DNA of 42,769 nucleotides from Candidatus Bathyarchaeota archaeon RBG_13_60_20 (GTDB taxonomy: Archaea > Thermoproteota > Bathyarchaeia > TCS64). Under the pieces are notes generated by a model, which saw only the letters and a program-made list of their open reading frames with translations, did not search any database and was not told the origin of the DNA. A program made the position numbers and the translations under genes. The stretch spans positions 1 through 42,769 of the forward strand of contig MEZG01000043.1 of NCBI GenBank assembly GCA_001775965.1. Direction: 5' to 3'. Below, piece by piece: positions 14,306-42,088 of the stretch; position 1 is the first letter of the stretch; each line of letters starts with the position of its first letter.

Positions 14306-14313
14306 AAAAAAAA
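14306..14313 (-). terminator. Oligo-T (T8) archaeal-type terminator after the four-gene membrane operon
   Basis: A8 on the + strand is T8 on the - strand, beginning 13 nt after the TAG stop at 14326-14328. Confidence 0.5.
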
Positions 14314-14325
14314 TAGGATTGTTTT

Positions 14326-15003
14326 CTACCGGCCGCTGTACCACTTGATCTTCTTCGTGTAGTACCCGTAACCCAGCCCCAGGGCCACGAGCAGCAGCAT
14401 GGCGTAGGTGTATAAGGCCACCTCCGGCCTCAGCATGTCCACGAGCCGCCCGATGACCAGCTCGAACCTGAAGCTGACGGTCTGCCCGTAGGTGACGCCG
14501 AAGGCCGCCAGGAGGAAGATGCGCCCGGTCTGGTTGACGTACTTGTAGGGCCCCTCCATCTGGGCCGTGAAGATGAAGTAGGCGGCGGCCGTGACCGTCC
14601 CCACTATCATCACGAGGTTGTTGATGTTGTTCAGAGGCAGAACGGTGGCGTTGATCTGGCCGAGGAAGTCCGCCATGACGCTCGTCCTGATGGCCAGGCC
14701 GAGGCCCGCGCCCACGGTCACCGCCACGGGGTACCTGGAGAGCCAAAGCCACTCGATCTTAAGCCTGGAGAACAGCATCACGCAGAGGATAACAGCGACG
14801 ACGAAGATGTAGTTGCCCTGAAGCACGGGGTTGATGGCGCTGGTCCTGACGTAGTTCCAGTTGGTGGCGAAGATGAAGCCGCCCAGGATGCCCATATACA
14901 GGTTCTCGGTGAACTTGCTCAGCGGGTTGTCGCCTATCAGCACGGAGTACGCGCCGATGGATACGAAGGAGCCCGCTATGAGTCCCAGTAAGAAGCTGTC
15001 CAT
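14326..15003 (-). CDS. Uncharacterised polytopic membrane protein (about 6-7 TM), gene 4 of the membrane operon
   Basis: Its ATG abuts the upstream stop (TAG|ATG at 15001-15006). Multiple hydrophobic helices are present, with no known motif. Confidence 0.7.
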   Translation of the reverse strand: MDSFLLGLIAGSFVSIGAYSVLIGDNPLSKFTENLYMGILGGFIFATNWNYVRTSAINPVLQGNYIFVVAVILCVMLFSRLKIEWLWLSRYPVAVTVGAGLGLAIRTSVMADFLGQINATVLPLNNINNLVMIVGTVTAAAYFIFTAQMEGPYKYVNQTGRIFLLAAFGVTYGQTVSFRFELVIGRLVDMLRPEVALYTYAMLLLVALGLGYGYYTKKIKWYSGR

Positions 15004-15846
15004 CTACTTAGCTCCCCCCTCTCTCCTAGCTACGAAGTACAGCACGTTACCAAGGACCACCAGTAACGCCCAGAGCAGGCCGCCGAAGTTGGTTGCCATA
15101 GCCTGACCCAGGGCGAGCCCGGGCATGCCCATCAGGTACTCGTACTCGGCCGAGCCCCTGACCCCGCCGATGATCCCTATCATCTGGCCCGAGTTGATAT
15201 AGGGCGTGTAGTTGGGCACCTCGTTAGTGGTGCACATACCAGTCATAGGCACGCCGAAGGGCGTGACTATCTGCCTGATGCCGAAGGGTATGCTGCCCTC
15301 TGAGCCACCCCACCAGAAGAGCGCCGCGAAGTCGGATGCCTTGTTGATGTCACTCATGAGGGGTATCTGACCTATGGGGGTCCCGAAGTGGTCCTCAGTC
15401 TTCACGCTGCGAATGTCGTTCGCGAAGGCCGCCACGCCGGACTCTCCGCCCGGAACGTAGCCCATGTGAACCCAGTTCACGCCGTTCTCTGCTGCGACCC
15501 CGGAGGGTAGCTTGGCTAGCGCGTTATCGATGGCCGTCACGGTCCACGCAGCCGTCTCCGTGCCTATGCTGAAGAAGACCAGTTTGATGTCCTTGCTCAG
15601 CAGGTGCACGATCTGCACCTCGAGGCCTGGGCCGCCCTGCGGGTACGTGGCTGCGCCGAGCCCGCCCTCGATGAGGACGACCGAGCCTGAGGGTATGGAG
15701 TCGGCGAACTCAAAGGAATCCCTGGAGTACTGCTGTATATTCATTGGGAGTATTACCGGGCTGAGTATCGGGAAGGCCAGCGCTATGAACATCAGCGCGA
15801 AGATGATCCTCTGGTCAAGCGCCAGCATCTTATCCATCAGACTCAT
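15004..15846 (-). CDS. Uncharacterised bitopic membrane protein (N- and C-terminal TM helices flanking a ~200-aa domain), gene 3
   Basis: Its start overlaps the upstream stop by 4 nt (15843-15846). Terminal helices are RIIFALMFIALAFPILSPVIL and GGLLWALLVVLGNVLYFV. Confidence 0.7.
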   Translation of the reverse strand: MSLMDKMLALDQRIIFALMFIALAFPILSPVILPMNIQQYSRDSFEFADSIPSGSVVLIEGGLGAATYPQGGPGLEVQIVHLLSKDIKLVFFSIGTETAAWTVTAIDNALAKLPSGVAAENGVNWVHMGYVPGGESGVAAFANDIRSVKTEDHFGTPIGQIPLMSDINKASDFAALFWWGGSEGSIPFGIRQIVTPFGVPMTGMCTTNEVPNYTPYINSGQMIGIIGGVRGSAEYEYLMGMPGLALGQAMATNFGGLLWALLVVLGNVLYFVARREGGAK

Positions 15847-16496
15847 TCCGAGTCCCTCCTCTCCTCCCTGATCCCCAGGTGCTCCTTCTGCCGGCCCATG
15901 AACACCCTGACGCCCAGGCCCATGATCCCCAGGCTGGTCCCGATGATCATGCCCCTGAACCCGGCCCCACTAGGGAAGCTCCTGATCCATTCGCCCAGCG
16001 GCACGACCGGCGGGAACAGTATTGCGCCTATAGGGATGAGCATCAGGAGCACAACCAGTGCGCACACGAGTAGGACCGCGGCGTTCCAGTTCCTGGCTCT
16101 CAGGACCCTGTACGCGGCCGACGTGATGTAGAAGGCGGTCAGCGAGTAGAGGGCTGCGCCGATGGGTGACGTCATGTTGTTGTAGATCCACAGGAACGTG
16201 GTGTCCCTGACGTTCAGGACGCCCAGCCCCGCCGTGACCACGAAGGCCACAACGTAGACGATGCTGTAGTACCATTCGCTGCCCCTGGTGCCGACCTTTT
16301 TGGTGTGGAATATGGTGAGCACTATGGTCCCCAGGATGAGCGCCGTCGCCGAGATGATGGTAACGAACGAGCGGAGCGTGACATTCAGGCTCGTCACGGA
16401 CGCGGGCATCGGGAAGAAGAACTCGATGATCATCAGGAGCCCGATTACTGCGGTCAGTATCATCGGGATCTGCATCTTAACTAATCTATCTGACAC
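15843..16496 (-). CDS. Uncharacterised polytopic membrane protein (about 6 TM), gene 2
   Basis: A GTG start is preceded by a GAGGTGA SD in the 11-nt gap after gene 1. Confidence 0.7.
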   Translation of the reverse strand: MSDRLVKMQIPMILTAVIGLLMIIEFFFPMPASVTSLNVTLRSFVTIISATALILGTIVLTIFHTKKVGTRGSEWYYSIVYVVAFVVTAGLGVLNVRDTTFLWIYNNMTSPIGAALYSLTAFYITSAAYRVLRARNWNAAVLLVCALVVLLMLIPIGAILFPPVVPLGEWIRSFPSGAGFRGMIIGTSLGIMGLGVRVFMGRQKEHLGIREERRDSE

Positions 16497-16507
16497 TTCA
16501 TCTCACC

Positions 16508-17287
16508 TCACATAGACAACAGTCCCTTGATGCTCATACCAAGGGTTATGAGAACGGACCCGAGCACGATCAGTATCACCGCGATGAACTTGCCGACGTC
16601 TTGCCCTGCCAGGGACGAGGACACGGTGGGGTCCTCCGACACGTAGGCTCCGAGGGCGTATAGCTCCTCGCCAATGATGCTGTAGTCGCAGATGGCCACC
16701 AGGAACGGTATGTTGTGTGTGGTGTCTGTTCCGCCGAGCATCATCGCCCCCACGCGGGCCGCGTTCTCGGTGAATATAACGGCCTTGTGGTACCAGCTCC
16801 CGAGGAAGAAGGCCCCAGCCATCCCGTCGCTCCACATATGGTTGATGATGTACATCCTGTCCGCACCGTCGGGGAGGTACATCACCGCCTCATCCAGCTT
16901 CAGCTCGTCCTGCTTGTTCTCGGCCTTGTACGCCTCGTCAACTATCTCGCTCGCGATAGTGTAGGCCAGGCCCTGGGTCACCGGGACGAAGAACCTGGCC
17001 CCCAGCCTGGCGGCGCTCCGCGCCGTGTAGGCCAGTATCTGGAAGGCGGCGACGGTCGGGGCCAGCACGCTCGGGTTGTCCATGGTCACAGTGTCCATGA
17101 GGTAGTAGGCGGGGCGCCCCATCTCAACGCACCTTCCGAGGATCTCGTCGATCTGGTTCACCGCTGCCAGTCGTCTGAGTTTAGGTAGTTTACCTGAGTA
17201 CGCTCTCTGCATGTAGTAGATTATCGATCCTGCTATGATTAACAGGGAAAGTAGGCCGATGACTCGGCCCTCAACAATTAGTGCCAA
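16508..17287 (-). CDS. Uncharacterised membrane protein (N- and C-terminal TM helices), gene 1
   Basis: TTG start at 17287. The next in-frame Met would delete the first TM helix. It lies downstream of a 253-bp AT-rich promoter region. Confidence 0.65.
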   Translation of the reverse strand: MALIVEGRVIGLLSLLIIAGSIIYYMQRAYSGKLPKLRRLAAVNQIDEILGRCVEMGRPAYYLMDTVTMDNPSVLAPTVAAFQILAYTARSAARLGARFFVPVTQGLAYTIASEIVDEAYKAENKQDELKLDEAVMYLPDGADRMYIINHMWSDGMAGAFFLGSWYHKAVIFTENAARVGAMMLGGTDTTHNIPFLVAICDYSIIGEELYALGAYVSEDPTVSSSLAGQDVGKFIAVILIVLGSVLITLGMSIKGLLSM

Positions 17288-17540
17288 TTGTCATTCCCCA
17301 AGAAGATGTGCACGTATTTACTATAAATATTTTCAAGGGTGGACACGAAAAATATTAGTTAAACGCATTAAATTGTTGGTTTTTCACACTCGCCCTTTAT
17401 CATTTAAGCCCCAACCCTCACTGAATTAATATCAAGCGATGGGCGTTCAACATAGATGTTAAAAGGTTAGCTACAGCAATGTGACGCATTATAAAAAAGT
17501 TTATTAGTTGTACAGAGTCACGTGCTACGAATTTTAAAGG

Positions 17541-18872
17541 ATGGATGTTGTGGGCGAGGCGGCAGAGGGAAGGGGCATGTTCTGGTTCATACAGGGCAAC
17601 ATCAAGGTTCTGATGTTCTGCCGCGTCCTGTGGAGCTTCAGCACCAGCATCATCTACCCCTTCTTCAGCCTCTACATCCTTGCCCTGGGGGGCAGCAGCA
17701 CGGAGATCGGGCTCATCAGCAGCCTGGGGCTCATCGCGGGCATGGTCCTCTACCCCCTGGGCGGCTACATCGCCGACAGGGCCGGCCGCGTCAAGCTCAT
17801 AGGCTACAGCACTTTCCTGTACGCCTTCGCTCACCTGTTCTTCGTCTTCGCCACCAACTGGCAGATGATAGCCATCGGCCAGTTCTTCAGCCAGCTCCTG
17901 CTCTTCTACATGCCCGCCATGAACGCCCTGGAGTCTGACAGCCTCCCTCCGGGTGTCCGGGGCAAGGGGTTCGCCATTATAATGGCTGTGCCCGGCTCGG
18001 TGAGGATCATTGCCCCGCTGGTGGGCGGCTACGTCATTGAATGGTTTAAGACCTCCAGCGGCATGACTGGGAACGAGGCTACGGCGCAGGCTGTGCGCAT
18101 CTGCTGGGGGATCGCTTTCCTCACGGGCCTGCTTGTGGCCTGGATAAGGCTGAGGAACCTCAAGGAGACCATCACCGAGGAGGAGGGCAGCCACAAGATC
18201 AGTTTCAGGGAGATACCGGGGATGGTCATCCCCGCGTACAGGAGCATACTGGACAGCGTCAAGTGGATGAACAGGAGCCTCCGCGTCATCGTGATCCTGG
18301 AGATGGTGGCCAGCTTCTTCATAGCTATGAGCGCCCCCTTCTACGTGGTCTACGCCACAAAGCTCATCGGGCTATCCGAGGCCCAGTGGGGGCTGGGCAT
18401 GTTCATCAGCGGCCTCATCGGCATCATGCTTGCGTTCCCCCTGGGCAGCGCGACCGACAGGGTTGGCCCTAGGAGGATGATCATGTTGGGGATGTTCCTG
18501 GTACCCTTCATGATCTTCAGCTTCCAGTACTCGGGTGGGTTCCTGGGCGTGGCAGCCGTCCTTATCGGCGTGCAGATATGCAACAACATCATGGTCCCCG
18601 CCTTCAGCACCATCATCGCAAACACGATCCCAAGGAGCCGCAGAGGCCGCCTCTACAGCCTGATAGGCGAGCGGGGGATATCCATTAACTTCGGGAACTT
18701 TTGGGGCGGGGGCTTCCTCCTGTTTCCACCGGCCGCGCTGGGAGCGTACGTTGGCGGGTGGGTCTACCAGCTGGACCCCAACCTGCCCTGGATCATTACG
18801 AGCGGGGCCCTGCTGGTCTGCGCCCTGATGGTGTACCTCTTCGTCCAGGAGCCTGAGGAGGCCCAGCACTAG
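17541..18872 (+). CDS. MFS transporter
   Basis: It has about 12 hydrophobic helices and MFS motif A (GGYIADRAGRVKL). Confidence 0.8.
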   Translation: MDVVGEAAEGRGMFWFIQGNIKVLMFCRVLWSFSTSIIYPFFSLYILALGGSSTEIGLISSLGLIAGMVLYPLGGYIADRAGRVKLIGYSTFLYAFAHLFFVFATNWQMIAIGQFFSQLLLFYMPAMNALESDSLPPGVRGKGFAIIMAVPGSVRIIAPLVGGYVIEWFKTSSGMTGNEATAQAVRICWGIAFLTGLLVAWIRLRNLKETITEEEGSHKISFREIPGMVIPAYRSILDSVKWMNRSLRVIVILEMVASFFIAMSAPFYVVYATKLIGLSEAQWGLGMFISGLIGIMLAFPLGSATDRVGPRRMIMLGMFLVPFMIFSFQYSGGFLGVAAVLIGVQICNNIMVPAFSTIIANTIPRSRRGRLYSLIGERGISINFGNFWGGGFLLFPPAALGAYVGGWVYQLDPNLPWIITSGALLVCALMVYLFVQEPEEAQH

Positions 18873-18971
18873 GCATCATCGGGGGCCACCCCTAAATCCT
18901 TATACAAAAAACACTTAAAAGTCAGACACGGACAGTCTGTTCAGCGCGAGGAGGGATAGAGGTGGACGAAA

Positions 18972-20174
18972 ATGCTGAAGATAAACCGGGGCCAGCTGCA
19001 CGCTTCAGTGTCGAAGGTCTACGAGTCCCTCCTGCCCCTGTCGTTTAACCTGACTGGGCTGGTAGCCGGGGTATTCGTGGCGACGTTTTCAGGTGTCATA
19101 GCCACTGTGCCATGGGGGTTCCTGATCTACCCGGGGATTCTGAGCATCAGGGGCGCATTGGGCGGTCTCTTCGCGGGGAGACTGAGCACGGCCCTGCACC
19201 TTGGAACGGTGAAGCCGCAGCTCAGAGACAACACCGTGCACCTCAGCATCCTTGTGAAGTCCATCGTCGCCTTGACCCTGCTCAGCGGTGTCTTCATAGG
19301 CTTGACGGGCTCGGTCTTCAGCGGCCTATACACAGGCTTCAGCGCCGTGGAGTCATTGAAGATAATCGCTGTCACCATCGCTACCATGGCTGTCTCCAAC
19401 GTGGTGATATCACCGATCACGTTCGGCTTGTCAATAGTATCGTTCAACAGGGGCTACGACCCTGACGTGGTCCTCTATCCAATAGTGTCCACGGTCGCTG
19501 ACATCATGATCACGATCACGTACATCGCCATGGTCTGGCTGTCCCTGAGCCAGACGGGATTGATCATGATCACTGCAGTAGCGACCGGGTTCACGGCCTG
19601 GTCGGCTCTTGTCATTAGGGAGAACATGGCAGAGGACGAGTTCAGCCAGACCATCAGGGAGTTCCTGATCACGCTGGTGATAGTCTCCGTTATTGTGGGC
19701 ATCACGGGGACCACCCTGGAGCGCATCTCCGAGAGGATACAGGGGGCCAGGGAGATCTACGCAATATACCCGGCGCTCATCGACACTATCGGCGACGTCG
19801 GCTCGATCATAGGCTGCACGCTCACCACGAAGCTGGCCCTCGGGACCGTGCCGTCCCACCCGAGGCGGCTCAGCGACCTCAAAGGCGAGCTCGGCGAGGT
19901 TGTGAGCGCATGGGGTGCATCGGTTATCCTCTTCGGGATGTACGCGCTCATCGCCTCGCTGATCTACGCCCCGGCGGGACTGGCCGCCCTCACCCTAAGG
20001 CTCCTGGCGCTTAACCTCATCTCGGTCCCGATCATAATCCTGGTGGTCTTTGTCATCACCTACGCCACATACTCCAGGGGGTGGAACCCCGATAACTTCC
20101 TCATCCCGATAGAGAGCAGCCTGGCCGACACCGTGACCACTCTGGCGCTGCTCCTGGTCCTGCTATTGGGTTGA
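18972..20174 (+). CDS. Divalent-cation (Mg2+) transporter with two MgtE-type membrane domains (SLC41-like architecture)
   Basis: There is an internal duplication: PGILSIRGALGGLFAGRLSTALHLG and YPALIDTIGDVGSIIGCTLTTKLALG. No cytosolic N/CBS domains are present. A GAGGTG SD lies 8 nt upstream of the ATG. Confidence 0.6.
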   Translation: MLKINRGQLHASVSKVYESLLPLSFNLTGLVAGVFVATFSGVIATVPWGFLIYPGILSIRGALGGLFAGRLSTALHLGTVKPQLRDNTVHLSILVKSIVALTLLSGVFIGLTGSVFSGLYTGFSAVESLKIIAVTIATMAVSNVVISPITFGLSIVSFNRGYDPDVVLYPIVSTVADIMITITYIAMVWLSLSQTGLIMITAVATGFTAWSALVIRENMAEDEFSQTIREFLITLVIVSVIVGITGTTLERISERIQGAREIYAIYPALIDTIGDVGSIIGCTLTTKLALGTVPSHPRRLSDLKGELGEVVSAWGASVILFGMYALIASLIYAPAGLAALTLRLLALNLISVPIIILVVFVITYATYSRGWNPDNFLIPIESSLADTVTTLALLLVLLLG

Positions 20175-32106: not shown

Positions 32107-33900
32107 ATGAGGCAGCTGATCCACAACGGCGTCATGGTCCCGCCCCCGTACGAGGCCCAAGAGCTCTTGGTTAGGATAAAGGGCGAGGAGCACAGGTTGA
32201 CCCTAGCCCAGGAGGAGCGGGCGGTGGCGTGGGCCAAGAAGATGGGCACCCCATACGTGGAGGACCCGGTCTTCGCCGAGAACTTCCACAGCGACTTCAG
32301 CGAGGTGCTGGGCCTTAAGGTGCTCCCCGGCGACGTGGAATACACGGACATCCACAGGATGGTCCTGGCCGAGCGCGAGCACCGCCAGAACCTGCCCAAC
32401 GAGGAGAAGAAGAGGCTCAGGGACCTGAGGAAGGTGGAGCGTGAGGCCAACAAGGAGAGGTACGGGTACGCGGTCATCAACGGCGAGCGCTGCGAGCTGG
32501 GCAACTACACCGTTGAGCCCAGCGGCATCTTCATGGGCCGCGGCCAGCACCCCTTCAGGGGCAAGTGGAAGGAGGGTCCGCGCCACAGCGACATCGAGCT
32601 GAACCTGAGCCCCGATGCGCCCAAGCCGCCCGGCGACTGGAAGGCCGTCGTCTGGGACCCGGAGAGCATGTGGATAGCCCGATGGAAGGACAGGCTTACC
32701 GACAAGATGAAGTATGTGTGGCCCCATGACAGCAGCCCCATCAAGCAGCGGAAGGAGGTTGAGAAGTTCGATAAGGCTGTTGAGCTCCGCAGGAACCTGG
32801 GCAGAGTCCGTTGCCACATCATGGACAACCTGGCCAGCCCGGACCTGCGCCGCCGCAAGACCGCCACCGTCAGCTACCTCATAGACGCCCTCAAGTTCAG
32901 GGTGGGCGACGAGAAGGACGACGAGGAGGAGGCCGATACGGTGGGCGCCAGCAGCCTCCGCACCGAGCACATCGCCTTCAACCCGGATGGCTCCGTCACC
33001 TTCGACTTCCTGGGCAAGGACAGCATCCCCCTCAAGCTCACGGCCACCCTGGACCCCCGCGCCGCGGCGAACCTCAAGGAGTTCGCGGAGATGAACAGCG
33101 GGGGCCCCCTCTTCGAGGAGGTCAACAGCAGCGTCGTTAGCGAGTTCCTAGGCGAGGTCATGGACGGAGTCACCGCCAAGGTCTTCAGGACGTGCCACGC
33201 CACGGAGGCCGTGGAGAGGCGGCTCAGGGAGACGGAGGTGAAGCCAGACGAGCCAGAATACTGGAAGAGGCACGTCGCCACCCTGGCCAACTTGGACGCG
33301 GCCGTCACGTGCAACCACAAGCGCACCATACCCAAAACCTGGGAGCAGGGCCTGCAGCGCCAGAGGGAGCGCCTGGAACAGACGAAGAGGAAGGCCCGCG
33401 AGAACCTGCGCAAGTCCAAGCAGCGCATCCAGGAAGCCACAGGCAAACACGAAAGCCGGATAGCCAAACTCGAGGCCAAGCTGGAGGAGGACAAGGTCAA
33501 GCTCCAGGGGCTCAAGGAGGAGCTAAGGCAGAGGGAGGAGCAGGGTAAGCCCACAGGTAGCCTGAAGAGCCGGGTATCCTCCAAGCAGAAGAGCGTCCGG
33601 GCGACACGTGAAAGCATACAGCAGGCCAAGTCCAAGCACCGAGATGCCGCGGAGAAGCTGAGGATGCAGATGGAGGAGCGGCGAGCCAAGGACGAGGAGA
33701 CGGTGGAGAAGCTCAGGCTTCAGCTGGAAGCCAGGGAGCTGACTCGCGACTACAACCTGGGGACCAGTCTCAAGAGCTACGTGGACCCCCGCGTCTACTA
33801 CGAGTGGGGCCGCAGGGTCGACTACGACTGGAGGAGCTACTACAGCGACAACCTTGCCAAGAAGTTCAGCTGGGTGGACCCCGCGCCCGACGAGGAGTAG
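32107..33900 (+). CDS. Eukaryote-type DNA topoisomerase IB (long form with coiled-coil linker)
   Basis: All five catalytic positions are recognisable against human Top1: ADTVGASSLRTEH (Arg), FDFLGKDSIP (Lys), KVFRTCHAT (Arg), CNHKRTIPKTWE (His) and LGTSLKSYVDPRV (catalytic Tyr, codon 33778-33780). A K/R/E-rich linker precedes the Tyr domain. Confidence 0.9.
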   Translation: MRQLIHNGVMVPPPYEAQELLVRIKGEEHRLTLAQEERAVAWAKKMGTPYVEDPVFAENFHSDFSEVLGLKVLPGDVEYTDIHRMVLAEREHRQNLPNEEKKRLRDLRKVEREANKERYGYAVINGERCELGNYTVEPSGIFMGRGQHPFRGKWKEGPRHSDIELNLSPDAPKPPGDWKAVVWDPESMWIARWKDRLTDKMKYVWPHDSSPIKQRKEVEKFDKAVELRRNLGRVRCHIMDNLASPDLRRRKTATVSYLIDALKFRVGDEKDDEEEADTVGASSLRTEHIAFNPDGSVTFDFLGKDSIPLKLTATLDPRAAANLKEFAEMNSGGPLFEEVNSSVVSEFLGEVMDGVTAKVFRTCHATEAVERRLRETEVKPDEPEYWKRHVATLANLDAAVTCNHKRTIPKTWEQGLQRQRERLEQTKRKARENLRKSKQRIQEATGKHESRIAKLEAKLEEDKVKLQGLKEELRQREEQGKPTGSLKSRVSSKQKSVRATRESIQQAKSKHRDAAEKLRMQMEERRAKDEETVEKLRLQLEARELTRDYNLGTSLKSYVDPRVYYEWGRRVDYDWRSYYSDNLAKKFSWVDPAPDEE

Positions 33901-34182
33901 TTATCCTCCGCCGATGGGCGGCATCACCCTCACTGTGTCCCCGTCAACCAGAACCTTTCCGAACCCGCCGAGACCAGATATATCAACGTCGTTGACGCTG
34001 AACATCAGGTAGTCCAGGGGCCGGCCGTTCCCGTCAAACGCGTATTCCTCCAGAGGGCCGTGGAGCCCCACGAGGGCGCGAACAAGGTCGAGCACCGTAG
34101 ACCCCTCCGGCAGCGAGACGGCCTCATCACCTGTTCCGGCCGCCTCCCGGGCCATAGCGTAGTACCTGACCCTGACCCTCAC
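33901..34182 (-). CDS. MoaD/ThiS-family ubiquitin-like small protein with a C-terminal Gly-Gly
   Basis: The 93-aa protein ends ...VMPPIGGG and has a MoaD-like N-terminus (RVRYYAMAREAAG). Its stop abuts the TopIB stop (TAG|TTA at 33898-33903). Confidence 0.75.
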   Translation of the reverse strand: MRVRVRYYAMAREAAGTGDEAVSLPEGSTVLDLVRALVGLHGPLEEYAFDGNGRPLDYLMFSVNDVDISGLGGFGKVLVDGDTVRVMPPIGGG

Positions 34183-34263: not shown

Positions 34264-36099
34264 TTGTCAAGCAAACTGAAGGGGTACGCGGGGAGGTTCC
34301 TGGACGTGGACCTCACCGGGGCCACCCTGTCCGACAGGGTCTTCGACGAGGAGACCCTCAGGCTCTACATGGGCGGCACGGGCATCGGGTCCAAGCTGCT
34401 CTACGAGGAGGTGCCCAGGGACGCCGCGTGGAACGACCCGAGGAACATGGTGTCCATCGCCAGCGGGCCACTGGGGGGCACCGCGGTGGGCGGCTCAGGT
34501 ACCATAAGCATCGTAACCAAGGGTGCCCTCACCGGAGGCGCCACAAGCGTCCAGGCCAACGGCCTCATCGGGGCCTACATGAGGTTCAGCGGGTACGACG
34601 GCGTCATAGTCAGGGGCGCCTCAAGCGACTGGAAGTACCTAGTACTCAAGGATGGTAAAGCCGAGCTCAGGGACGCCTCGCCCATCCTGGGGCTGGACAC
34701 CTACGAGACTACCGACAGGCTCAGGGAGATGCACGGCGCCAAGGGGCGCGAGGCAAGCGTCCTTAGCATAGGGCCCTCAGGGGAGAACCTCGCCAGGTTC
34801 GCAGGCGTATTCGTGGACCACGGCCACAGCGCCAGCCACAACGGCCCAGGCGCTGTGCTGGGCAGTAAGAAGCTGAAGGCCATAGTCGCGTTCAGGGGCG
34901 GTGGCCGGGTGGACGTCCACGACCCTAAGAAGCTGACAGAGGTGGCCCAGGAGATGTACAAGGACGTCGAGTACTTCAGGGGCACCATCGGCGGCGTCGC
35001 CAACATGTACAGGGGCGCCAAGGGCGACCTCCCCATAAAGAACTACATGACCTACGACTGGGGCGCGTCCCCGGAGGAGGTGGAGTCCTTCACCGAGAAG
35101 AGCATCCGCGACAGGTACCAGGTGGAGCGTATGCCGTGCTGGGGCTGCAGGCTGCTCCACAGCACCATGATGGAGGTCAGGGAAGGCAGGTACAAGTGCC
35201 ACGTTGAGGAGCCGGAGTACGAGCAGATGGCGGCCTGGGGCCCCGTCATAGGCAACTCGGACGTGGAGGCCGCCATGATGCTGAGCGGCTTGACGGACAG
35301 GCTTGGCCTGGAGAATAACGAGGCGGGCTGGCTGGTGGGCTGGGTCATGGAGTGCGCCGAGAAGGGGTACCTAGCGGAGAGCCAGCTGGGCTTCAAGACG
35401 GGGTGGGGCGACGTTGAGGGTGCGGAGCGCATCCTCAGGATGGTATCGAGCCGCGAGGGCTTCGGCGACGTCCTAGCCGAAGGCGTCAAACGGGCCTCGG
35501 AGAAGGTGGGGGGCAATGCAGCAGATTGCGCCATCTACACATTGAAGGGCAACACGCCCAGGGGCCACGACCACAGGACCAGGTGGAGCGAGATGTTCGA
35601 CACCTGCGTAAGCAGCACGTCAACCATCGAGACCCACATGGGCGCCATGAGCCCCCAGTCCCAGGGCCCCGCCAACCCGATGTTGGTGAGCGGAGAGGTG
35701 GCCCGCACCAAGGGGCTCATGCAGCTCGAGGACAGTGTAGGCACCTGCCGCTTCAACACCCGGATGAACGCCGGGAAGCTGGCTGAGGCCGTCTCCGCAT
35801 CCACGGGCTGGGACATGGGAGCCGAGGAGGCGTGGGACGTGGGCAGGCGGGCCGTGAACCTCCTCAGGGCCTTTAACCTGGAGTCGGGCATCGGCCCCGA
35901 GCTGGACAGGCCCTCAACCAGGTACGGCTCCACACCTGTGAACGGACCCACGGCCGGCGTCAGCATCATGCCCCACTGGGACGAGATGCTCAGCAACTAC
36001 TACGCGCTCATGGGCTGGGACGAGAGGGGCATCCCCAGGAGGGAGACCCTGGAGAGGCTCGGCATAGGCCACGTCTGGGCCGGCATCAAGGGACTCTGA
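34264..36099 (+). CDS. aor: Aldehyde:ferredoxin oxidoreductase (AOR) family tungstoenzyme
   Basis: The N-terminus is GYAGRFLDVDLTG. GPGAVLGSKKLKAIV, EEPEYEQ and DSVGTCRF are family signatures. TTG start. Confidence 0.85.
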   Translation: MSSKLKGYAGRFLDVDLTGATLSDRVFDEETLRLYMGGTGIGSKLLYEEVPRDAAWNDPRNMVSIASGPLGGTAVGGSGTISIVTKGALTGGATSVQANGLIGAYMRFSGYDGVIVRGASSDWKYLVLKDGKAELRDASPILGLDTYETTDRLREMHGAKGREASVLSIGPSGENLARFAGVFVDHGHSASHNGPGAVLGSKKLKAIVAFRGGGRVDVHDPKKLTEVAQEMYKDVEYFRGTIGGVANMYRGAKGDLPIKNYMTYDWGASPEEVESFTEKSIRDRYQVERMPCWGCRLLHSTMMEVREGRYKCHVEEPEYEQMAAWGPVIGNSDVEAAMMLSGLTDRLGLENNEAGWLVGWVMECAEKGYLAESQLGFKTGWGDVEGAERILRMVSSREGFGDVLAEGVKRASEKVGGNAADCAIYTLKGNTPRGHDHRTRWSEMFDTCVSSTSTIETHMGAMSPQSQGPANPMLVSGEVARTKGLMQLEDSVGTCRFNTRMNAGKLAEAVSASTGWDMGAEEAWDVGRRAVNLLRAFNLESGIGPELDRPSTRYGSTPVNGPTAGVSIMPHWDEMLSNYYALMGWDERGIPRRETLERLGIGHVWAGIKGL

Positions 36100-36938: not shown

Positions 36939-36940
36939 TC

Positions 36941-37008
36941 CATTTATAAATGACTGATCAATGCATTGATCGCTCATTTATAAACAGCTGATCAATCGAT
37001 TGATCAGC
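36941..37008. repeat. Tandem 34-bp module, each copy = CATTTATAAA + 3 nt + perfect palindrome built on CTGATCAAT/ATTGATC half-sites
   Basis: The modules span 36941-36974 and 36975-37008 (26/34 identical). The palindromes are GATCAATGCATTGATC (36956-36971) and GCTGATCAATCGATTGATCAGC (36987-37008). Confidence 0.8.
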
Positions 37009-37042
37009 GGTTTAAAAAATTCGTTCTAAAGTCTATTGAAGC

Positions 37043-37354
37043 TTAGGGCTCACGCGGCTGGAGTATCTCCAGCCTCTTCCCCTCGGTGAGGGCCTGCGCC
37101 ACCTTCATCCTCCCACCGTTGAGGAGCCTCCAGATGGTGCCTCGGCTCACGCCCATGGCCGCGCCCGCCTCCTCCTGTGACATGCCCTCAAGGTCTACGA
37201 GGCGGATGGCCTCAAGCTCGGCGAACTCCAGGTGTACGGGGTCGCCCGGCCTCATGGGCTCCGGCTGGAAGGCTGTGGCAGCAGACGGCTTGCCCACCTT
37301 GACTGGCATGGGAAGCCTTCCGTGTCTCCCCCTTCTTCTTCTCCCGTGCATCAT
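37043..37354 (-). CDS. DUF134 (UPF0251) family predicted DNA-binding regulator
   Basis: The sigma-70-region-4-like HTH is EAIRLVDLEGMSQEEAGAAMGVSRGTIWRLLNGGRMKVAQAL, after a basic N-terminus. The start is essentially leaderless, about 31 nt from the TATA centre. Confidence 0.75.
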   Translation of the reverse strand: MMHGRRRRGRHGRLPMPVKVGKPSAATAFQPEPMRPGDPVHLEFAELEAIRLVDLEGMSQEEAGAAMGVSRGTIWRLLNGGRMKVAQALTEGKRLEILQPREP

Positions 37355-37363
37355 GGGTGGTTA

Positions 37364-37429
37364 TGTGCACATGCACAATATTTATATATTTCTGTGCGTA
37401 TGCACATAACGAAAGTGTGCGTAAGCACA
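37364..37429. promoter_or_regulatory. Bidirectional promoter: shared TATA (TTTATATA, 37381-37388) flanked by three TGTGC-N4-GCACA inverted repeats
   Basis: The repeats are TGTGCACATGCACA (37364-37377), TGTGCGTATGCACA (37393-37406) and TGTGCGTAAGCACA (37416-37429). Confidence 0.65.
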
Positions 37430-37443
37430 GAAAGGTGTGAAAC

Positions 37444-37716
37444 ATGGGATACAGAGGAAGAAGGATGGGAAGGAACCCCGGAAACGGGCCCTTCAGCGAC
37501 CTGCCCCCGTGGCAGCGCCCAGGATGGACCTACGGCTACGGCCGCGGATACGACCCAGGCTACGGTAGAGGATACTACGCCGGTGATCCCAGCAAGTGCG
37601 CCCGGTTCCCGTGGCTGCCCCGCTGGTGGTGGGCGAACCCCGACTACAGGGGAACAGTGCCAATGGCTCCGGTTACAGGGGACGCTCCCGCGGCACCCGT
37701 GGCTCCGGATGAGTGA
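37444..37716 (+). CDS. DUF5320-like protein, N-terminal Gly/Arg/aromatic-rich part, ending at an in-frame TGA
   Basis: It has a GRNPGNGP...PGW segment and a tandem GYGRGY repeat. The composition and gene context match DUF5320 proteins found in NifX/MinD clusters (from memory). Confidence 0.55.
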   Translation: MGYRGRRMGRNPGNGPFSDLPPWQRPGWTYGYGRGYDPGYGRGYYAGDPSKCARFPWLPRWWWANPDYRGTVPMAPVTGDAPAAPVAPDE

Positions 37717-37809
37717 ATGTTCCTGAAGGACCAGATGAAGTACCTGGAGCAGGAGCTCACAGGCATCAGGAAGCGTCTGGACGAGCTGGGTTCAGAGGAA
37801 ACAGCTTAG
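37717..37809 (+). CDS. 30-aa coiled-coil peptide matching the C-terminal helix of DUF5320; in frame with, and directly after, the TGA of the preceding ORF
   Basis: The junction reads GAG TGA ATG TTC. The peptide MFLKDQMKYLEQELTGIRKRLDELGSEETA matches the conserved C-terminal helix of the family. Confidence 0.4.
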   Translation: MFLKDQMKYLEQELTGIRKRLDELGSEETA

Positions 37810-37840
37810 TACCCTAAACCCCCTTTTTTTGGTGATCAAG

Positions 37841-38173
37841 ATGAAGATAGCGGTGCCCACCCGGGGAAACAGAGGGCTGAGGGACAGGGTAGCCGACACC
37901 TTCTCACGTGCACCTTACTTCACCTTAGTAACCGTTGAGAACGGGGGCATCACCGATAAGAAGGTTATCCAGAACAAGGCGTCAGAGATGAATCAGGGGG
38001 CCGGTCCGATGGCCGCGCGCACCCTCATGGACAACGGCGTAGACGTGCTTCTCTCAGGGGAGATTGGCCCCGGCGCCACCAGCATCCTAGAGGCCTTCAG
38101 GATAAGAATCGGCAACGCCTCTAAGGACGAGAAGGTTAGGGACGCCGTAGAGAAGTACCTGGCCCAGCTATAG
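37841..38173 (+). CDS. NifB/NifX-family (dinitrogenase Fe-Mo cofactor-binding domain) protein
   Basis: I place the start at ATG 37841, which has a GGTGATC SD 4 nt upstream. It has MKIAVPT...FSRAPYFTLV...GAGPMAARTLMDNGVDVLLSGEIGPGA, typical of the domain. Confidence 0.75.
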   Translation: MKIAVPTRGNRGLRDRVADTFSRAPYFTLVTVENGGITDKKVIQNKASEMNQGAGPMAARTLMDNGVDVLLSGEIGPGATSILEAFRIRIGNASKDEKVRDAVEKYLAQL

Positions 38174-39031
38174 GCCGAGGAATGAGCTGAACTCGCCCCA
38201 GGCCGCCTGTATTGCTATGGACGCCGGCGAGTCGGGGCTGAAGACTGTCACTGGCTGAGCCTGAACCATAGCCTTCGTGACGTTCTCGTCGAAGGGGATC
38301 ATGCCCAGCACGGGTATCCCCTGATCCTCGCAGAAGCCCCTGATGGACGCCGTGTTCTCCACGTTGAGGTCGTACTTGTTGATGATGACGCTGGGCACGA
38401 TCTCAAAGTGCTCCAGAAGCTGAAGAGCCCTCTTCAGGTCATGTATGCCGCTCAGCGTGGGCTCGACGACGGCGACCGCTGCGTCCACGTTGCTGAGGCT
38501 GGCGATTACCGGGCACCCGATGCCAGGCGGCCCGTCCACGAGAACGAGCTCCCTGCCCGTCTCATCGGCGAGCTTGACCGCGTTCTGGCGCACGAGGGTA
38601 ACGAGTTTTCCGCTGTTCTCCATGCCGGGGGTGAGCCGCGCGTGGCTCATGGGGCCGTACACTGTCTCGCTCAGGTAGGCGTGCCCGCAGACGCGTTCGT
38701 TGAAGCTTATCGCCTCCGCGGGGCAGTTCACGACGCACACTTTGCAGCCTTCGCAGTAGATGGGGTCCACGGCGTAATCGTGGATGGCGTTGAACCGGCA
38801 CAGCTGCATGCATAATCCGCACCTGGTGCACTTCTCCGGGTCGATCTCGGCCAGGTTCAGGCCCTTGAACTCCATGGTCTCCTTTACCTTCGGGTTGAGT
38901 ATCAGGTGCAGGTTGCTTGCGTCCACGTCGCAGTCGGCCAGTACGGGCTCATTCGCCAGGGCCGCGAAGCATCCCGTGATGGTGGTCTTACCTGTCCCGC
39001 CCTTGCCGCTGAGGATCGTTACCTGCTTCAC
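38168..39031 (-). CDS. MinD/ParA-superfamily P-loop ATPase with an inserted 2x[4Fe-4S] ferredoxin module (COG1149-type)
   Basis: The GTG start at 39031 overlaps the upstream stop (GTGA). It has the deviant Walker A SGKGGTGKTT, plus CTRCGLCMQLC and CEGCKVCVVNCP. Confidence 0.8.
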   Translation of the reverse strand: MKQVTILSGKGGTGKTTITGCFAALANEPVLADCDVDASNLHLILNPKVKETMEFKGLNLAEIDPEKCTRCGLCMQLCRFNAIHDYAVDPIYCEGCKVCVVNCPAEAISFNERVCGHAYLSETVYGPMSHARLTPGMENSGKLVTLVRQNAVKLADETGRELVLVDGPPGIGCPVIASLSNVDAAVAVVEPTLSGIHDLKRALQLLEHFEIVPSVIINKYDLNVENTASIRGFCEDQGIPVLGMIPFDENVTKAMVQAQPVTVFSPDSPASIAIQAAWGEFSSFLGL

Positions 39032-39861
39032 GCGATCATCGCCTCCACCGTTTCCATGAGCTCGCGGAACCTGCTGCGCCACTCGGTCATCTCAGCGGTG
39101 AAGGGTATCCCCCTGCTGTACAGCTCCGCTATGCGCCTATCGTATGGTATCTCCATGATCACCGGTATCTCCTCGCGTTCACAGTAACCGTACACGCCTC
39201 GGTCGCCGACCCCGGCGAAGTTCACGACGACGCCCAGAGGGACGCCTAGCTGTTTCACCACCTCGGTGGCGACCTGGAGGTCGTGGAGCCCGAAGGGCGT
39301 GGGCTCGGTGACCATGAGGCAGAAGTCGGCCCCGTGCACGGTCTCCACGAGGAGGCACGCGGCGCCCGGCGCCGCGTCCAGGATGACCAGTCCGTCGTCT
39401 ACCGCCTGCTCCTTGACGGCTGATATCACGGGGACCGCCAACGCTTCACCTACATCGAGTTCGCCGTAGACTAGTTCCATCCCGTGGGACTCTGCGACGG
39501 TTATCGTCCCTATCCGTCTGGGCTTCTCGGTTATAGCGTCCTCCGGGCAGACCAGTCTGCAGCCTCCGCAGCTGTGGCACAGCTCGGGGAATACCATGGC
39601 GGTCTCTCCCACCACGAACAGGGCGTTGTACTGGCAGAACTCTGTGCACCTTCGACAGTGGGTGCACTTTTTCTCATTGATCTGCGGGACTAGCAGCTCC
39701 ACCGGCTTCCTCCTCGGGTTCTCAGGCTTGAGGAATATGTGGACGTTGGGCTCCTCGACGTCGCAGTCTATAACCTGTTTAGCGCCCGTGCTGAGCGCCA
39801 GGTTGACGGATATACTGGTTTTGCCGGTGCCGCCTTTGCCGCTAGCCACGACGAGCTTCAT
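39028..39861 (-). CDS. MinD/ParA-superfamily P-loop ATPase with an inserted 2x[4Fe-4S] ferredoxin module (COG1149-type), paralog
   Basis: It has the Walker A SGKGGTGKTS, plus CTHCRRCTEFC and CHSCGGCRLVCP. Confidence 0.85.
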   Translation of the reverse strand: MKLVVASGKGGTGKTSISVNLALSTGAKQVIDCDVEEPNVHIFLKPENPRRKPVELLVPQINEKKCTHCRRCTEFCQYNALFVVGETAMVFPELCHSCGGCRLVCPEDAITEKPRRIGTITVAESHGMELVYGELDVGEALAVPVISAVKEQAVDDGLVILDAAPGAACLLVETVHGADFCLMVTEPTPFGLHDLQVATEVVKQLGVPLGVVVNFAGVGDRGVYGYCEREEIPVIMEIPYDRRIAELYSRGIPFTAEMTEWRSRFRELMETVEAMIA

Positions 39862-39867
39862 GGCGGC

Positions 39868-40239
39868 TCAGTGCTCGTGTTCGTGGAGGCAGCCCTGGGT
39901 GAGCTCCTGCAGTTCGCCGCGGATGAAAGCCTCCACGTTCTCCAAGCTTCCGGGGTGGGTTCCCTGGAGCACGGCTATCCCCAGCTCCTGGAACATCTGT
40001 ATGGCCTTCATGCCCATCCCCGAGGAGACCACGACCTCGCCGCCCAGGCTTTTAATCTTCTCAGGCGGGTGGCCCGTGCCCCCGAAGTGATCGCTGTCGT
40101 TGGGCACGACGCCGCTTTCAATGATCTTGCCTGACTCCACGGTGTACCACGCGAAGTAAGGCGCACGCCCGAAGTGGGCTGAAAGGGTTTCACCTGACTC
40201 CTCTGCTGCCGGGATAACTATCTTAACCATTTTCCTCAC
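39868..40239 (-). CDS. NifB/NifX-family cofactor-binding domain protein
   Basis: It has KIVIPAAE...HFGRAPYFAWY...VVVSSGMGMKAIQMF and ends in HEHEH. The start is GTG 40239 (GTGA overlap) or ATG 40230. Confidence 0.75.
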   Translation of the reverse strand: MRKMVKIVIPAAEESGETLSAHFGRAPYFAWYTVESGKIIESGVVPNDSDHFGGTGHPPEKIKSLGGEVVVSSGMGMKAIQMFQELGIAVLQGTHPGSLENVEAFIRGELQELTQGCLHEHEH

Positions 40240-40640
40240 TCCATGCCTCGGCGTCCGCCTTTACCCATGCCTCGTCCTCCCTGGCCGAAGTGGCCGCCCA
40301 CCGTGGGGGAGGACACCTCTCTCAGCTCTCCCCGCTTGTAAGCCTCCACTATCTGGCGGACTGTTCCTGAGGCCCCTGTATACACCTTTACACCTGCCTG
40401 GCTTAGAGCCATGTGGGCGTTGGGGCCTACCTGGCCGGTGAGGACGGCTTTGACGCCTGCGCCTACCACTGCCTGGGATGCTCCTATGCCCGCGCCGTGG
40501 GCCGCCCCGATGCCGCTGTTGGGCAGTGTCTCGGCCTGCATGGTCTCGGTATCAACAATGACGAAGACATTGCACCGTCCGAACCGGGGGTCCACCGGTA
40601 GGTCTAAACCATTCCCCGTGGAGCTCACAGCTACTTTCAA
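40236..40640 (-). CDS. NifB/NifX-family cofactor-binding domain protein with a Gly/Arg-rich C-terminal tail
   Basis: It has MKVAVSS...RFGRCNVFVIVD...GVKAVLTGQVGPNA and the tail GGHFGQGGRGMGKGGRRGME. The TTG start overlaps the Mrp stop (TTGA). Confidence 0.75.
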   Translation of the reverse strand: MKVAVSSTGNGLDLPVDPRFGRCNVFVIVDTETMQAETLPNSGIGAAHGAGIGASQAVVGAGVKAVLTGQVGPNAHMALSQAGVKVYTGASGTVRQIVEAYKRGELREVSSPTVGGHFGQGGRGMGKGGRRGME

Positions 40641-41476
40641 CTCTGTTTCACCTTCTCCTCTATCCTCTCAACTATCTTCTTGAACGCCTTGGCGGCTGGA
40701 GTGTTGGGGTGCATGACCACGAAGGGGGTCCCCTCGTCGCTGTCCGTCGATATCCGGGGGTCCATGGGTATGCTACCTAGGAGTTCAACCCCCATCTCCT
40801 CCGCCACCCTGGCACCCCCGTTGCCGCCGAAGACCTCTATGAGCTGGCCGCAGTGGGGGCAGACCATGCCACCCATGTTCTCCACCAACCCGAAGATGGG
40901 CACATCCATCTTCCTCGCGAACGTGATCGCCTTCTTTACCACAGACTGGCTCACCTCGCTTGGTATAGTTACTATGACGACGCCGTCCATGTTAGGTAGC
41001 AGCTGCAGTATGCTGAGGCTCTCGTCCCCCGTCCCCGGGGGCAGGTCCACAAGCAGGTAGTCCAGGTTGCCCCAGTTCACCTCACCCAGGAACTGGCGTA
41101 TGGCGCTCATCTTAAGGGGGCCCCTCCAGATGACCGGTGAGTCGTCGCTGGGAAGCAGAAAGTCCATGGACACAACCTTGATGCCCATGGGCCCCGTGGC
41201 GGGCCCTATACCGGCTGGCCCCGCGTCCAGTCTGGCACCCTTAAGTCCCAGCATCTTCGGGACGCATGGGCCTGTGAGATCGGAGTCGAGGATAGCCACC
41301 TTCTTGTCTCGGGCTAAAGCTACTGCCAAATTAACTGTGACGAGGCTCTTACCCACGCCGCCCTTCCCGCTTATTATGGCTATCTTGTGCTTTACTCGGC
41401 TCATTCGCTGCTTGATGAGCTCCTCATCATTGTTCTTCTGCTCCCAAGGGTTGGGGACATCCATTTTCTCGGCCAA
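40637..41476 (-). CDS. mrp: Mrp/NBP35/ApbC-family Fe-S cluster carrier ATPase
   Basis: It has the Walker A ISGKGGVGKSLV, DLPPGTGD, and the cluster-bridging CPHCG motif. Confidence 0.85.
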   Translation of the reverse strand: MAEKMDVPNPWEQKNNDEELIKQRMSRVKHKIAIISGKGGVGKSLVTVNLAVALARDKKVAILDSDLTGPCVPKMLGLKGARLDAGPAGIGPATGPMGIKVVSMDFLLPSDDSPVIWRGPLKMSAIRQFLGEVNWGNLDYLLVDLPPGTGDESLSILQLLPNMDGVVIVTIPSEVSQSVVKKAITFARKMDVPIFGLVENMGGMVCPHCGQLIEVFGGNGGARVAEEMGVELLGSIPMDPRISTDSDEGTPFVVMHPNTPAAKAFKKIVERIEEKVKQS

Positions 41477-41611
41477 ATCAGTTCACTTTAGGCTAGCTTA
41501 AATCGTATTTCTTTATCCCCAACCATTATAAACCTATCCCCATGGACAAACTCGCTATGATGCCCAGCGCACACAATTCGCAACGTATTTAGGCGTGCCT
41601 AACACAATCAT

Positions 41612-42088
41612 ATGATCTTGATGGTTAAAATAGGTGTGATGATTTGCGACCGCAACCGCACGTGCACCGGCAACAAGTGCTTCAAGTCCATCCTTGAGCG
41701 CGACGGCGCCTTCGCCAAGTACCCGAAGGACGAGCCCATCGAGGTGGTGGGCTGGATGGCCTGTGGGGGCTGCCCTGGAGAGCGCCTGGAGTACGCGCCC
41801 GCCGACATGAAGAAGTACGGGGCTGAGGAGATATACCTGGCCAGCTGCTACCTGGCCGGCTACCCCATCTGCCCCTACATTGAGGACCACAAGAACTACA
41901 TCGAGACCGTGGTGGGGCTCCCCGTGAAGGTGGGCACCCACCCCATGCCGGCCAACTACTTGAAGGCCCACACCAAGATAGGGGACTGGAAGAGGGACGG
42001 CGCCGACAGGTGGCTGGGCCCCGTCACCGGTGACAAGGGCGACGCCGACAAGTACGACTCCACAAACCCCAACTTCCTCAAGAAGTAG
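41612..42088 (+). CDS. CGGC-domain protein
   Basis: It has GWMACGGCPG together with the N-terminal CDRNRTCTGNKC and the downstream SCYLAGYPICPY cysteines. Confidence 0.7.
   Translation: MILMVKIGVMICDRNRTCTGNKCFKSILERDGAFAKYPKDEPIEVVGWMACGGCPGERLEYAPADMKKYGAEEIYLASCYLAGYPICPYIEDHKNYIETVVGLPVKVGTHPMPANYLKAHTKIGDWKRDGADRWLGPVTGDKGDADKYDSTNPNFLKK

Follow-up and report, generated by a model that had tools for sequence, protein, structure and literature searches.

What do genes for nitrogenase-type cofactor-binding domains do in a stretch of DNA where nitrogenase genes are absent? The question is raised by a compact group of nine predicted open reading frames (ORFs) at positions 37043-42088 of contig MEZG01000043.1 from Candidatus Bathyarchaeota archaeon RBG_13_60_20, the whole of which (42,769 nt) is referred to here as the window. 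The nine genes code for three small NifX-like proteins, two tandem MinD-type ATPases (A and B) with ferredoxin motifs, an Mrp/NBP35 ATPase, a DUF134 helix-turn-helix (HTH) protein, a DUF5320-like protein and a CGGC-domain protein. A preliminary description of this DNA took them for a candidate metallocluster-handling system of a kind whose function had not been defined experimentally. Our analysis indicates instead that the region is, with a probability of about 0.72, the archaeal version of the gene cluster for the orange protein (ORP) complex of strict anaerobes, handling iron-sulfur (Fe-S) or other metal-sulfide species. The claim that such neighbourhoods are experimentally undefined thus does not stand, because the ORP complex already has a name and a published biochemistry (PMC6345978, PMC8359166), even if its role is still unclear. 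The system is therefore named and partly characterised, and its function is not solved. The more general idea of an ATP-driven handling of Fe-S or other metalloclusters is reasonable, and the family assignments behind it hold.

Of the gene clusters confined to anaerobes, that of the ORP system is one of the most widely distributed, and 15 years of work have produced no agreed function for it. In Desulfovibrio vulgaris it is laid out as two divergent operons, orp3-orp4-orp5 and orp7-orp8-orp9. Orp3 and Orp4 are paralogues with two [4Fe-4S] ferredoxin motifs each, the small Di-Nase (IPR003731) proteins are Orp5 and Orp8, the latter being the orange protein with a non-covalent Mo-Cu-S cluster, and Orp9 (MrpORP) is a fusion of an Mrp domain with a Di-Nase domain (PMC6345978, PMC8359166, PMC3897727, PMC4641369). 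The complex is composed of Orp3/4/5/8/9, and in vitro Orp3-Orp4-Orp8 receive an Fe-S cluster ([4Fe-4S]) from MrpORP (PMC6345978). Expression of the orp genes is confined to low redox potential, the system has been proposed to have arisen in archaea, and its physiological role is "still unclear" to its own authors (PMC8359166). For the homologues in A. fulgidus, AF2378-2380, constitutively high expression is reported (PMC3949148).

The resemblance of the Bathyarchaeota genes to the ORP genes of D. vulgaris Hildenborough (DVU2103-DVU2109) extends to the two tandem MinD-like ATPases with two [4Fe-4S] ferredoxin motifs each, the Di-Nase (IPR003731) proteins of one domain each, among them a homologue of the orange protein, the Mrp/NBP35 carrier with its CxxC motif, the arrangement of the genes around divergent promoters and the confinement to anaerobes. 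There are also clear differences. In the window the Mrp and Di-Nase domains lie in separate genes and three Di-Nase proteins are free; a DUF134 HTH protein, archaeal TATA-like boxes and putative palindromic operators are present in place of sigma-54, OrpR and IHF; a CGGC gene is attached; and a stop codon interrupts the DUF5320 gene. Beyond the Orp8-like protein, the window has a third Nitro_FeMo-Co protein (37841-38173) and the DUF5320 gene as possible counterparts of Orp5 and Orp7.

The Mrp protein carries the deviant Walker A sequence GKGGVGKS at residue 37 and CPHC at residues 206-209. It scores 319.9 bits against Pfam PF10609, whereas its score against the ApbC model (211.6 bits) lies under the equivalog cut-off of 348. 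Its best NCBIfam model is MrpORP (NF041136), with 340 bits over positions 1-253 of 365, and MrpORP is also the sole NCBIfam model matched by all three NifX-like proteins. The 123-aa protein NifX2, encoded two positions downstream of Mrp, is Di-Nase-like and covers the other end of the same model (positions 263-364, 49 bits). It has a single Cys, ends in GCLHEHEH and finds its best match in the PDB in TM1816. In L028, a Desulfobacterota-type locus of our comparison set, a bona fide MrpORP is encoded (518 bits, against the cut-off of 450); its P-loop part shares 45% identity with the Mrp of the window and its Di-Nase domain 33% with NifX2, the terminal Cys-x-His included. Mrp and NifX2 together therefore look like a split MrpORP, judging from these alignments.

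The 134-aa protein finds its best match in the PDB in the orange protein of D. gigas (2WFB; 2.2e-21, 45% identity over 113 residues, i.e. the whole domain). The D. gigas protein binds a non-covalent [S2MoS2CuS2MoS2]3- cluster, and the 134-aa protein is likewise almost devoid of Cys. Unlike its D. gigas counterpart, it has an additional C-terminal tail of 22 residues, TVGGHFGQGGRGMGKGGRRGME, which is a cationic Gly/Arg sequence with an isoelectric point (pI) of 11.7. The third NifX-like protein, NifX3, has no Cys and a pI of 9.4, and is closest among solved structures to MTH1175 (1eo1, 5e-12).

ATPase A and ATPase B share the Walker A sequence GKGGTGKT. The preliminary description had given both of them two CxxCxxCxxxC(P) motifs; the motifs (at C66 and C95 in ATPase A, and at C68 and C93 in ATPase B) and the tandem arrangement were found as described, but Pro follows only the second motif of each protein. 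All eight ferredoxin Cys of ATPase A are conserved without exception across 35 aligned homologues. Its family is large, with 815 representative clusters at 50% identity matching at E<=1e-30, and many of the best-scoring relatives are proteins of ~600 aa with two matched stretches. Such natural fusions of two tandem ATPases would support a heterodimer of A and B. An AlphaFold2 model of ATPase A (pLDDT, predicted local distance difference test, 96.9) resembles ApbC, archaeal MinD, FlhG/FleN, HypB, Cfd1 and NifH most closely among solved folds, with TMq <=0.64. None of the solved proteins carries its ferredoxin insert, as judged by comparing both structure and sequence with solved structures.

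These ATPases share with NifH and with other SIMIBI metallochaperone ATPases (ApbC, Cfd1/Nbp35, HypB and CooC) a dimerising fold with a deviant Walker A motif and Fe-S centres. As in nitrogenase maturation with its NifX-NafY proteins, an ATPase stands beside small IPR003731 carriers, and the logic would be that of ATP-gated cluster or electron transfer. In contrast to NifH, the Fe-S centres are placed in an inserted 2x[4Fe-4S] ferredoxin domain and not at the dimer interface, and in contrast to nitrogenase maturation, nitrogenase, NifEN and radical-SAM NifB are all missing from the ~30 large ORFs scanned in the window.

To see the cluster in its wider context, we gathered 80 comparison loci (L002-L081) by similarity to ATPase A, from Bathyarchaeia, Thorarchaeota, methanogens, Thermoplasmatota, Desulfobacterota, Chloroflexota, Planctomycetota and other lineages, together with a set of near relatives consisting of six metagenome contigs (L082-L087). 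The species-level genomes nearest by ATPase A are metagenome-assembled genomes (MAGs) of Bathyarchaeia, at 60, 56 and 55% identity. Gene counts over the 80 loci are lower bounds because many of the contigs are truncated. In the locus L028 the MrpORP gene directly adjoins homologues of ATPases A and B, which in L028-type loci are ~50% identical to those of the window, and such loci thus bridge the window to the canonical bacterial ORP system.

Both ATPases occur in tandem in 78 of the 80 loci, while at least one NifX-like gene is found in 73 and at least two in 63. The ATPase pair and the NifX-like carriers can accordingly be regarded as the core module, and the recurrence of the core gene order in 80 loci from many phyla means that the cluster reflects more than chance. 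The conservation of the neighbourhood, for which the preliminary description had proposed a test, is thereby borne out, with the ATPase pair standing beside NifX-like genes in 73/80 loci. Mrp (41/80) and stand-alone DUF5320-like ORFs (38/80) are frequent additions, DUF134 (21/80) is one of several regulators, and CGGC (6/80) is peripheral; no solved relative of the CGGC protein was found by sequence. Among the 41 loci with Mrp, the unfused form is the commoner state (35 loci), the other six having it fused as MrpORP. All nine genes in identical order are found in L082, L083 and L087, and the relatives of NifX3 in L082-L087 occupy the same position at 76-85% identity.

Several points weigh against the assignment to the ORP system or leave parts of it less secure. 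The proposed orthology to Orp3/4/5/7 was judged indirectly, through the architecture of the domains, the structure entry of the D. gigas ORP, the MrpORP model of NCBIfam and the intermediate loci. Mrp has no Di-Nase domain fused to it and, at 340 bits, stays under the MrpORP cut-off of 450. NifX2 reads SAHFGRAP where MrpORP has CxHFGHCE; with the Cys residues of this motif missing, it may be unable to hold a [3Fe-4S]-type cluster such as MrpORP is reported to have. Each of the NifX-like proteins, although predicted to be cluster carriers, contains only 0-1 Cys. In the working model given below, the heterodimer, the direction of transfer, the role of DUF5320 and the identity of the repressor are inferred from the genes.

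The coordinates of all nine ORFs agree with those given by the preliminary description (Table 1). Eight of the nine pass curated Pfam cut-offs, the exception being the DUF5320-like ORF; the three NifB/NifX-type domain assignments and the Mrp/NBP35 (with CPHC), CGGC and DUF134 assignments were thus upheld. The translational coupling proposed for the five minus-strand genes was likewise found: the Mrp gene overlaps the gene of the 134-aa protein by TTGA, the latter overlaps the NifX2 gene by GTGA (40236-40239), a gap of 6 nt separates NifX2 from ATPase A, and the genes of ATPases A and B overlap by GTGA. Because of this GTGA overlap pattern of the minus-strand genes, the likely start of ATPase B is GTG 39031 and not 39082. 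Alternative starts exist for NifX2 (ATG 40230, with GGAGTGAGG ahead of the start) and for Mrp (ATG 41464). Scans of the window with Rfam models and for tRNA genes gave no matches.

Table 1. Features of the cluster in the window, and fusion genes carrying DUF5320 in related loci
Feature	Position	Strand	Support and remarks
DUF134 helix-turn-helix protein	37043-37354	-	Pfam 9.6e-21; 103 aa
DUF134/DUF5320 control region, three palindromes	37364-37429	.	motif scan
DUF5320-like N-terminal part	37444-37716	+	90 aa; ends at in-frame TGA
DUF5320-like C-terminal coiled-coil part	37717-37809	+	30 aa; ATG directly after TGA
NifX-like protein 3 (NifX3)	37841-38173 (alternative start 37829)	+	Pfam Nitro_FeMo-Co 5e-17
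MinD-type ATPase B, Orp3/Orp4 type	38168-39031	-	Pfam CbiA/MinD + two Fer4, 1.6e-15; 287 aa
MinD-type ATPase A, Orp3/Orp4 type	39028-39861	-	Pfam CbiA/MinD + two Fer4, 9.3e-14; 277 aa
NifX-like protein 2 (NifX2)	39868-40239	-	Pfam Nitro_FeMo-Co 4e-15; 123 aa
Orange-protein (Orp8) homologue	40236-40640	-	Pfam Nitro_FeMo-Co 1e-22; 134 aa
Mrp/NBP35 (ApbC-type) ATPase	40637-41476	-	Pfam ParA/NUBPL 1e-95; 279 aa
Mrp/CGGC divergent control region	41488-41602	.	palindrome scan
CGGC-domain protein	41612-42088	+	Pfam CGGC 2.7e-25; 158 aa, 7 Cys
Nitro_FeMo-Co + DUF5320 fusion	L043:8936-9508		DUF5320 47.6 bits
Nitro_FeMo-Co + DUF5320 fusion	L018:9328-9948		DUF5320 36.7 bits
Nitro_FeMo-Co + DUF5320 fusion	L034:1640-2242		DUF5320 37.7 bits
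Nitro_FeMo-Co + DUF5320 fusion	L012:743-1393		DUF5320 31.9 bits
2x[4Fe-4S] ferredoxin (2xFer4) + DUF5320 fusion	L041:878-1360		

The DUF5320-like gene deserves separate treatment. Taken alone, the 90-aa ORF that had been described as DUF5320-like has no Pfam or NCBIfam match, even at E<=10; it contains 15 Gly, 11 Arg+Lys and 16 aromatic residues and has a pI of 9.5. The 30-aa ORF continues in the same frame, with TGAATG at the junction, and by itself matches DUF5320 (PF17253) with 18.8 bits at profile positions 77-99. When the two ORFs are joined across the TGA at 37714-37716, the score rises to 30.4 bits and exceeds the cut-off of 27, so that the original assignment is recovered for the joined gene only. 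The orthologues in L082-L087, L002, L004 and L007 are each one uninterrupted ORF. That of L085, the near relative scanned against Pfam, scores 26.5 bits for DUF5320, just under the cut-off of 27, and that of L002 scores 81.2 bits. A tblastn alignment of the DUF5320 protein of L046 crosses the TGA of the window. At the split site the window reads GAG TGA ATG TTC, as opposed to GAG CGA GCG TTC in the six near relatives, a difference of three transitions. The split would thus be either a gene fission specific to the window, with a new start codon, or a sequence or assembly error. Selenocysteine insertion and programmed read-through at the TGA were considered and set aside, in view of the Arg codon CGA in the six relatives and the new ATG after the stop; since the relatives carry CGA GCG in a continuous ORF, the TGA is not a conserved recoding signal.

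In four loci DUF5320 is fused to the C-terminus of orange-protein homologues through a (GMGR)n stretch and a coiled coil, and a ferredoxin fusion also occurs (Table 1). Of the stand-alone DUF5320-like ORFs, 37 of 44 lie within 400 bp of an ORP gene, and the commonest position in related loci is directly upstream of the Orp8-like gene. These counts come from the first round of a custom hidden Markov model (HMM) search only, with ORFs overlapping known genes removed; the second round was discarded because it spread to 75/80 loci through low-complexity Gly/Arg matches. Because of the fusions in relatives, the DUF5320 family is physically tied to the ORP module. On this evidence of fusion and adjacency, DUF5320 appears to be a member of the module, a link that is new.

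The control of the cluster probably differs from that of the Deltaproteobacterial operons. In the region between the DUF134 and DUF5320-like genes, perfect TGTGC-N4-GCACA palindromes are found at 37364-37377, 37393-37406 and 37416-37429, and these are the sole three perfect copies in the 42.8-kb window. They flank a TATA-like box, AATATTTATATATTT, at 37377-37391. The palindrome block is nearly invariant in L082-L087, though the proteins are 76-85% identical, and is partly kept in the Bathyarchaeia loci L002 and L004. The divergent region between Mrp and CGGC carries a different palindrome, TTAGGC-N2-GCCTAA, at 41488-41501 (one mismatch) and 41589-41602 (perfect); these two copies are the only ones in the window, where 0.05 would be expected. 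The TATA-like box of Mrp, TTTATAAT, lies on the minus strand at 41525-41532, and ATATTTAGG precedes CGGC. One palindrome copy stands between the TATA box of Mrp and its start codon, the other partly covers the TATA box of CGGC, and both blocks are conserved in L082, L083 and L087.

Two divergent promoter regions had been proposed for the cluster, and TATA-like boxes are indeed present in both intergenic regions. A scan for sigma-70 promoters found none there, as expected for an archaeon; the "terminator" matches that the promoter scan returned at 37364 and 37429 are the operator palindromes themselves. No gene for a sigma-54 activator, as in control of the OrpR/IHF type, is present in the cluster. 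Control is thus probably of the repressor type and exerted through the palindromic operators. The DUF134 protein, which has no Cys, a pI of 10.7, further matches to Sigma70_r4/HTH families in Pfam and a score of 92 bits against NCBIfam PRK04217 (under the cut-off of 115), is a candidate local regulator, and one of the two types of operator is probably its target. The earlier suggestion that the cluster is under its own regulator accordingly holds in part: palindromes do stand beside the DUF134 gene, but those of the Mrp/CGGC region are of another kind. The archaeal control architecture with two sets of conserved palindromes is a modest novelty of this locus.

With ORP identity as the working assumption, the genes suggest the following scheme. 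A labile [4Fe-4S] cluster would be assembled on the CxxC motif of an Mrp dimer and passed to the ferredoxin inserts of ATPases A and B, a step proposed by analogy with the published Desulfovibrio biochemistry. The two ATPases would form an ATP-dependent heterodimer, as other deviant Walker A (SIMIBI) proteins do, whose nucleotide state could be coupled to the transfer of electrons or clusters. The Cys-poor NifX-like proteins may act as non-covalent carriers of anionic metal-sulfides, either Fe-S fragments or thiometallate clusters of the orange-protein type, and the cationic Gly/Arg/aromatic region of DUF5320 with its coiled coil may serve as a detachable tail for them. Expression would be of the archaeal type, with TATA boxes and probably palindrome-bound repression replacing the sigma-54/OrpR control of Deltaproteobacteria. 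A bolder generalisation, which we put forward as speculative and think rather unlikely to hold in all its parts, is that of a machine common to anaerobes: a MinD-ferredoxin heterodimer that would use ATP to load, reduce or unload metal-sulfides on NifX-like carriers, with DUF5320 as the tail subunit and, in archaea, a DUF134 repressor on TGTGC-N4-GCACA, used for storage and delivery of the IssA/NifX-like kind and not for cell division.

This scheme shades into the idea that the locus stores Fe-S material in the way of IssA of P. furiosus, the NifX-like domains and cationic tails holding a thioferrate-like polymer that the ATPases and Mrp mobilise into [4Fe-4S] clusters. IssA is itself an IPR003731 protein with a cationic, aromatic, Gly-rich tail proposed to bind thioferrate, MTH1175 belongs to its clade, and a further clade with Gly tails, named "IssX", is uncharacterised (PMC5524996). 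The cluster shares with IssA the IPR003731 domain and a cationic, disordered Gly/Arg/aromatic region; MTH1175 is the closest solved relative of NifX3, the orange-protein homologues of related loci can carry long (GMGR)n tails as fusions, and the composition of the N-terminal part of DUF5320 and the pI 11.7 tail of the 134-aa protein fall into the class of the IssA tail, which is a lead and not a test. In the window, however, the tails are short or detached, the cationic region lying mostly on a separate coiled-coil-ended DUF5320 protein whose gene is itself in two pieces; among characterised proteins, the 134-aa protein is most closely related to the Mo-Cu-binding orange protein and not to IssA; and nothing ties the cluster to sulfur or iron excess. 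No case is known of IssA working together with MinD-ferredoxin ATPases. Storage of this type is doubtful as the whole explanation, and it overlaps with an ORP-type function rather than excluding it. A different use of the same ATPases would be as spatial regulators, their metal centres being redox sensors that link division to anaerobiosis. Inactivation of OrpR in D. vulgaris led to morphological defects, from which a role in division was hypothesised, and MrpORP was located at a cell pole (PMC6345978, PMC8359166, PMC3897727); the fold of ATPase A is also nearest to ApbC and archaeal MinD. Yet it is equally similar to HypB, Cfd1 and NifH, which are metal-handling SIMIBI ATPases, the authors of the division hypothesis themselves call the role of ORP unclear, and the conserved partners are cluster carriers (NifX-like, Mrp), and the recurrent neighbours identified in the 80 loci include no gene for division or partition. 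A positioning function is thus improbable.

The tungsten-containing aldehyde:ferredoxin oxidoreductase (AOR) encoded upstream (34264-36099) had been named as a possible client, which would make the cluster a maturation or delivery line for this enzyme. The AOR gene (Pfam AFOR_N/AFOR_C) and a divergent ThiS/MoaD-like gene do lie ~1 kb upstream of the cluster, the order ThiS-AOR-HpcH-cluster is kept in L083 and partly in L082, and proteins of the orange-protein family can bind thiomolybdate-type clusters (PMC6345978). In none of the 80 loci of other lineages, however, is AOR, ThiS or HpcH found within 10 kb of the ATPase pair; because the linkage is seen only in near relatives (76-85% identity), it reflects shared ancestry. 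Between the AOR gene and the cluster lie an unrelated aldolase gene and the end of a convergent gene, and genes for Mo/W transport or pterin synthesis are missing among the recurrent neighbours identified, so that the AOR is very unlikely to be the client. Least credible of all is that the genes are a remnant or accessory of the pathway to the iron-molybdenum cofactor (FeMo-co), with nifHDK and nifB elsewhere in the genome. It would account for the three Nitro_FeMo-Co domains and the NifH-like SIMIBI fold, but no nif gene is present among the ~30 large ORFs scanned in the window (the nifH-type matches were weak P-loop matches of Mrp only), in agreement with the preliminary description, which had noted no nifHDK or radical-SAM nifB, and a nitrogenase role is for this reason unlikely. 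Moreover, the closest characterised relatives of the small proteins are ORP, MTH1175 and TM1816 and not NifX, NafY or NifB, ORP-type clusters are common in non-diazotrophic lineages, and in a published phylogeny IssA and ORP-like proteins stand apart from the Nif clades (PMC5524996).

As an ORP locus, the window is a clean archaeal example and not a new kind of system. The handles that it offers are a compact control region of palindromes, evidence for the membership of DUF5320 and a natural split of the MrpORP domains. If DUF5320 is indeed the cationic partner of the NifX-like carriers, the ORP and the IssA/thioferrate literatures would become connected, with a bearing on the storage or trafficking of Fe-S and thiometallate species in strict anaerobes.

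Other genes recur near the core module in related loci, namely those for a Zn-ribbon protein (33/80), PAS-sigma54 activators (24), a radical SAM protein (18), an MBL-fold protein (16), ARMT1/DUF89 (12) and DUF364 (9), none of which is present in the window. The 24 loci with PAS-sigma54 activators are all labelled as bacterial or as unclassified MAGs. The Zn-ribbon neighbour is a small Zn_ribbon_8 (FmdB-like) protein (e.g., L027:7820-8083) found in bacterial ORP-type loci, and the radical SAM neighbour (e.g., L055:1502-2458) has no NCBIfam match at E<=1e-10.

Where the aldolase and DUF134 genes converge, the short spacer holds two units of ~30 nt at 36940-37015, each consisting of TTTATAAA followed by the palindrome CTGATCAAT-NN-ATTGATC. 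The first copy is kept in L082 and L083, and the unit may represent a hairpin for termination, the promoter of a small RNA or a site for protein or other binding. Further upstream, the ThiS/MoaD-like protein with its GG terminus (33901-34182, minus strand) is encoded divergently from the AOR (plus strand), and next to it is a gene for a eukaryote-type DNA topoisomerase IB of 597 aa (32107-33900, plus strand) with Topoisom_I_N, Topoisom_I and Topo_C_assoc domains, an enzyme known from only a few archaeal lineages. Positions 12001-20000 have a G+C fraction of 0.56-0.60, compared with 0.62-0.65 elsewhere in the window. This stretch includes a gene of the class A beta-lactamase family (13021-13908, minus strand; Beta-lactamase2, 215 bits) and, near it, a run of four minus-strand genes (14326-17287), three of them without a Pfam match and the fourth with DUF6754, and may be acquired DNA.

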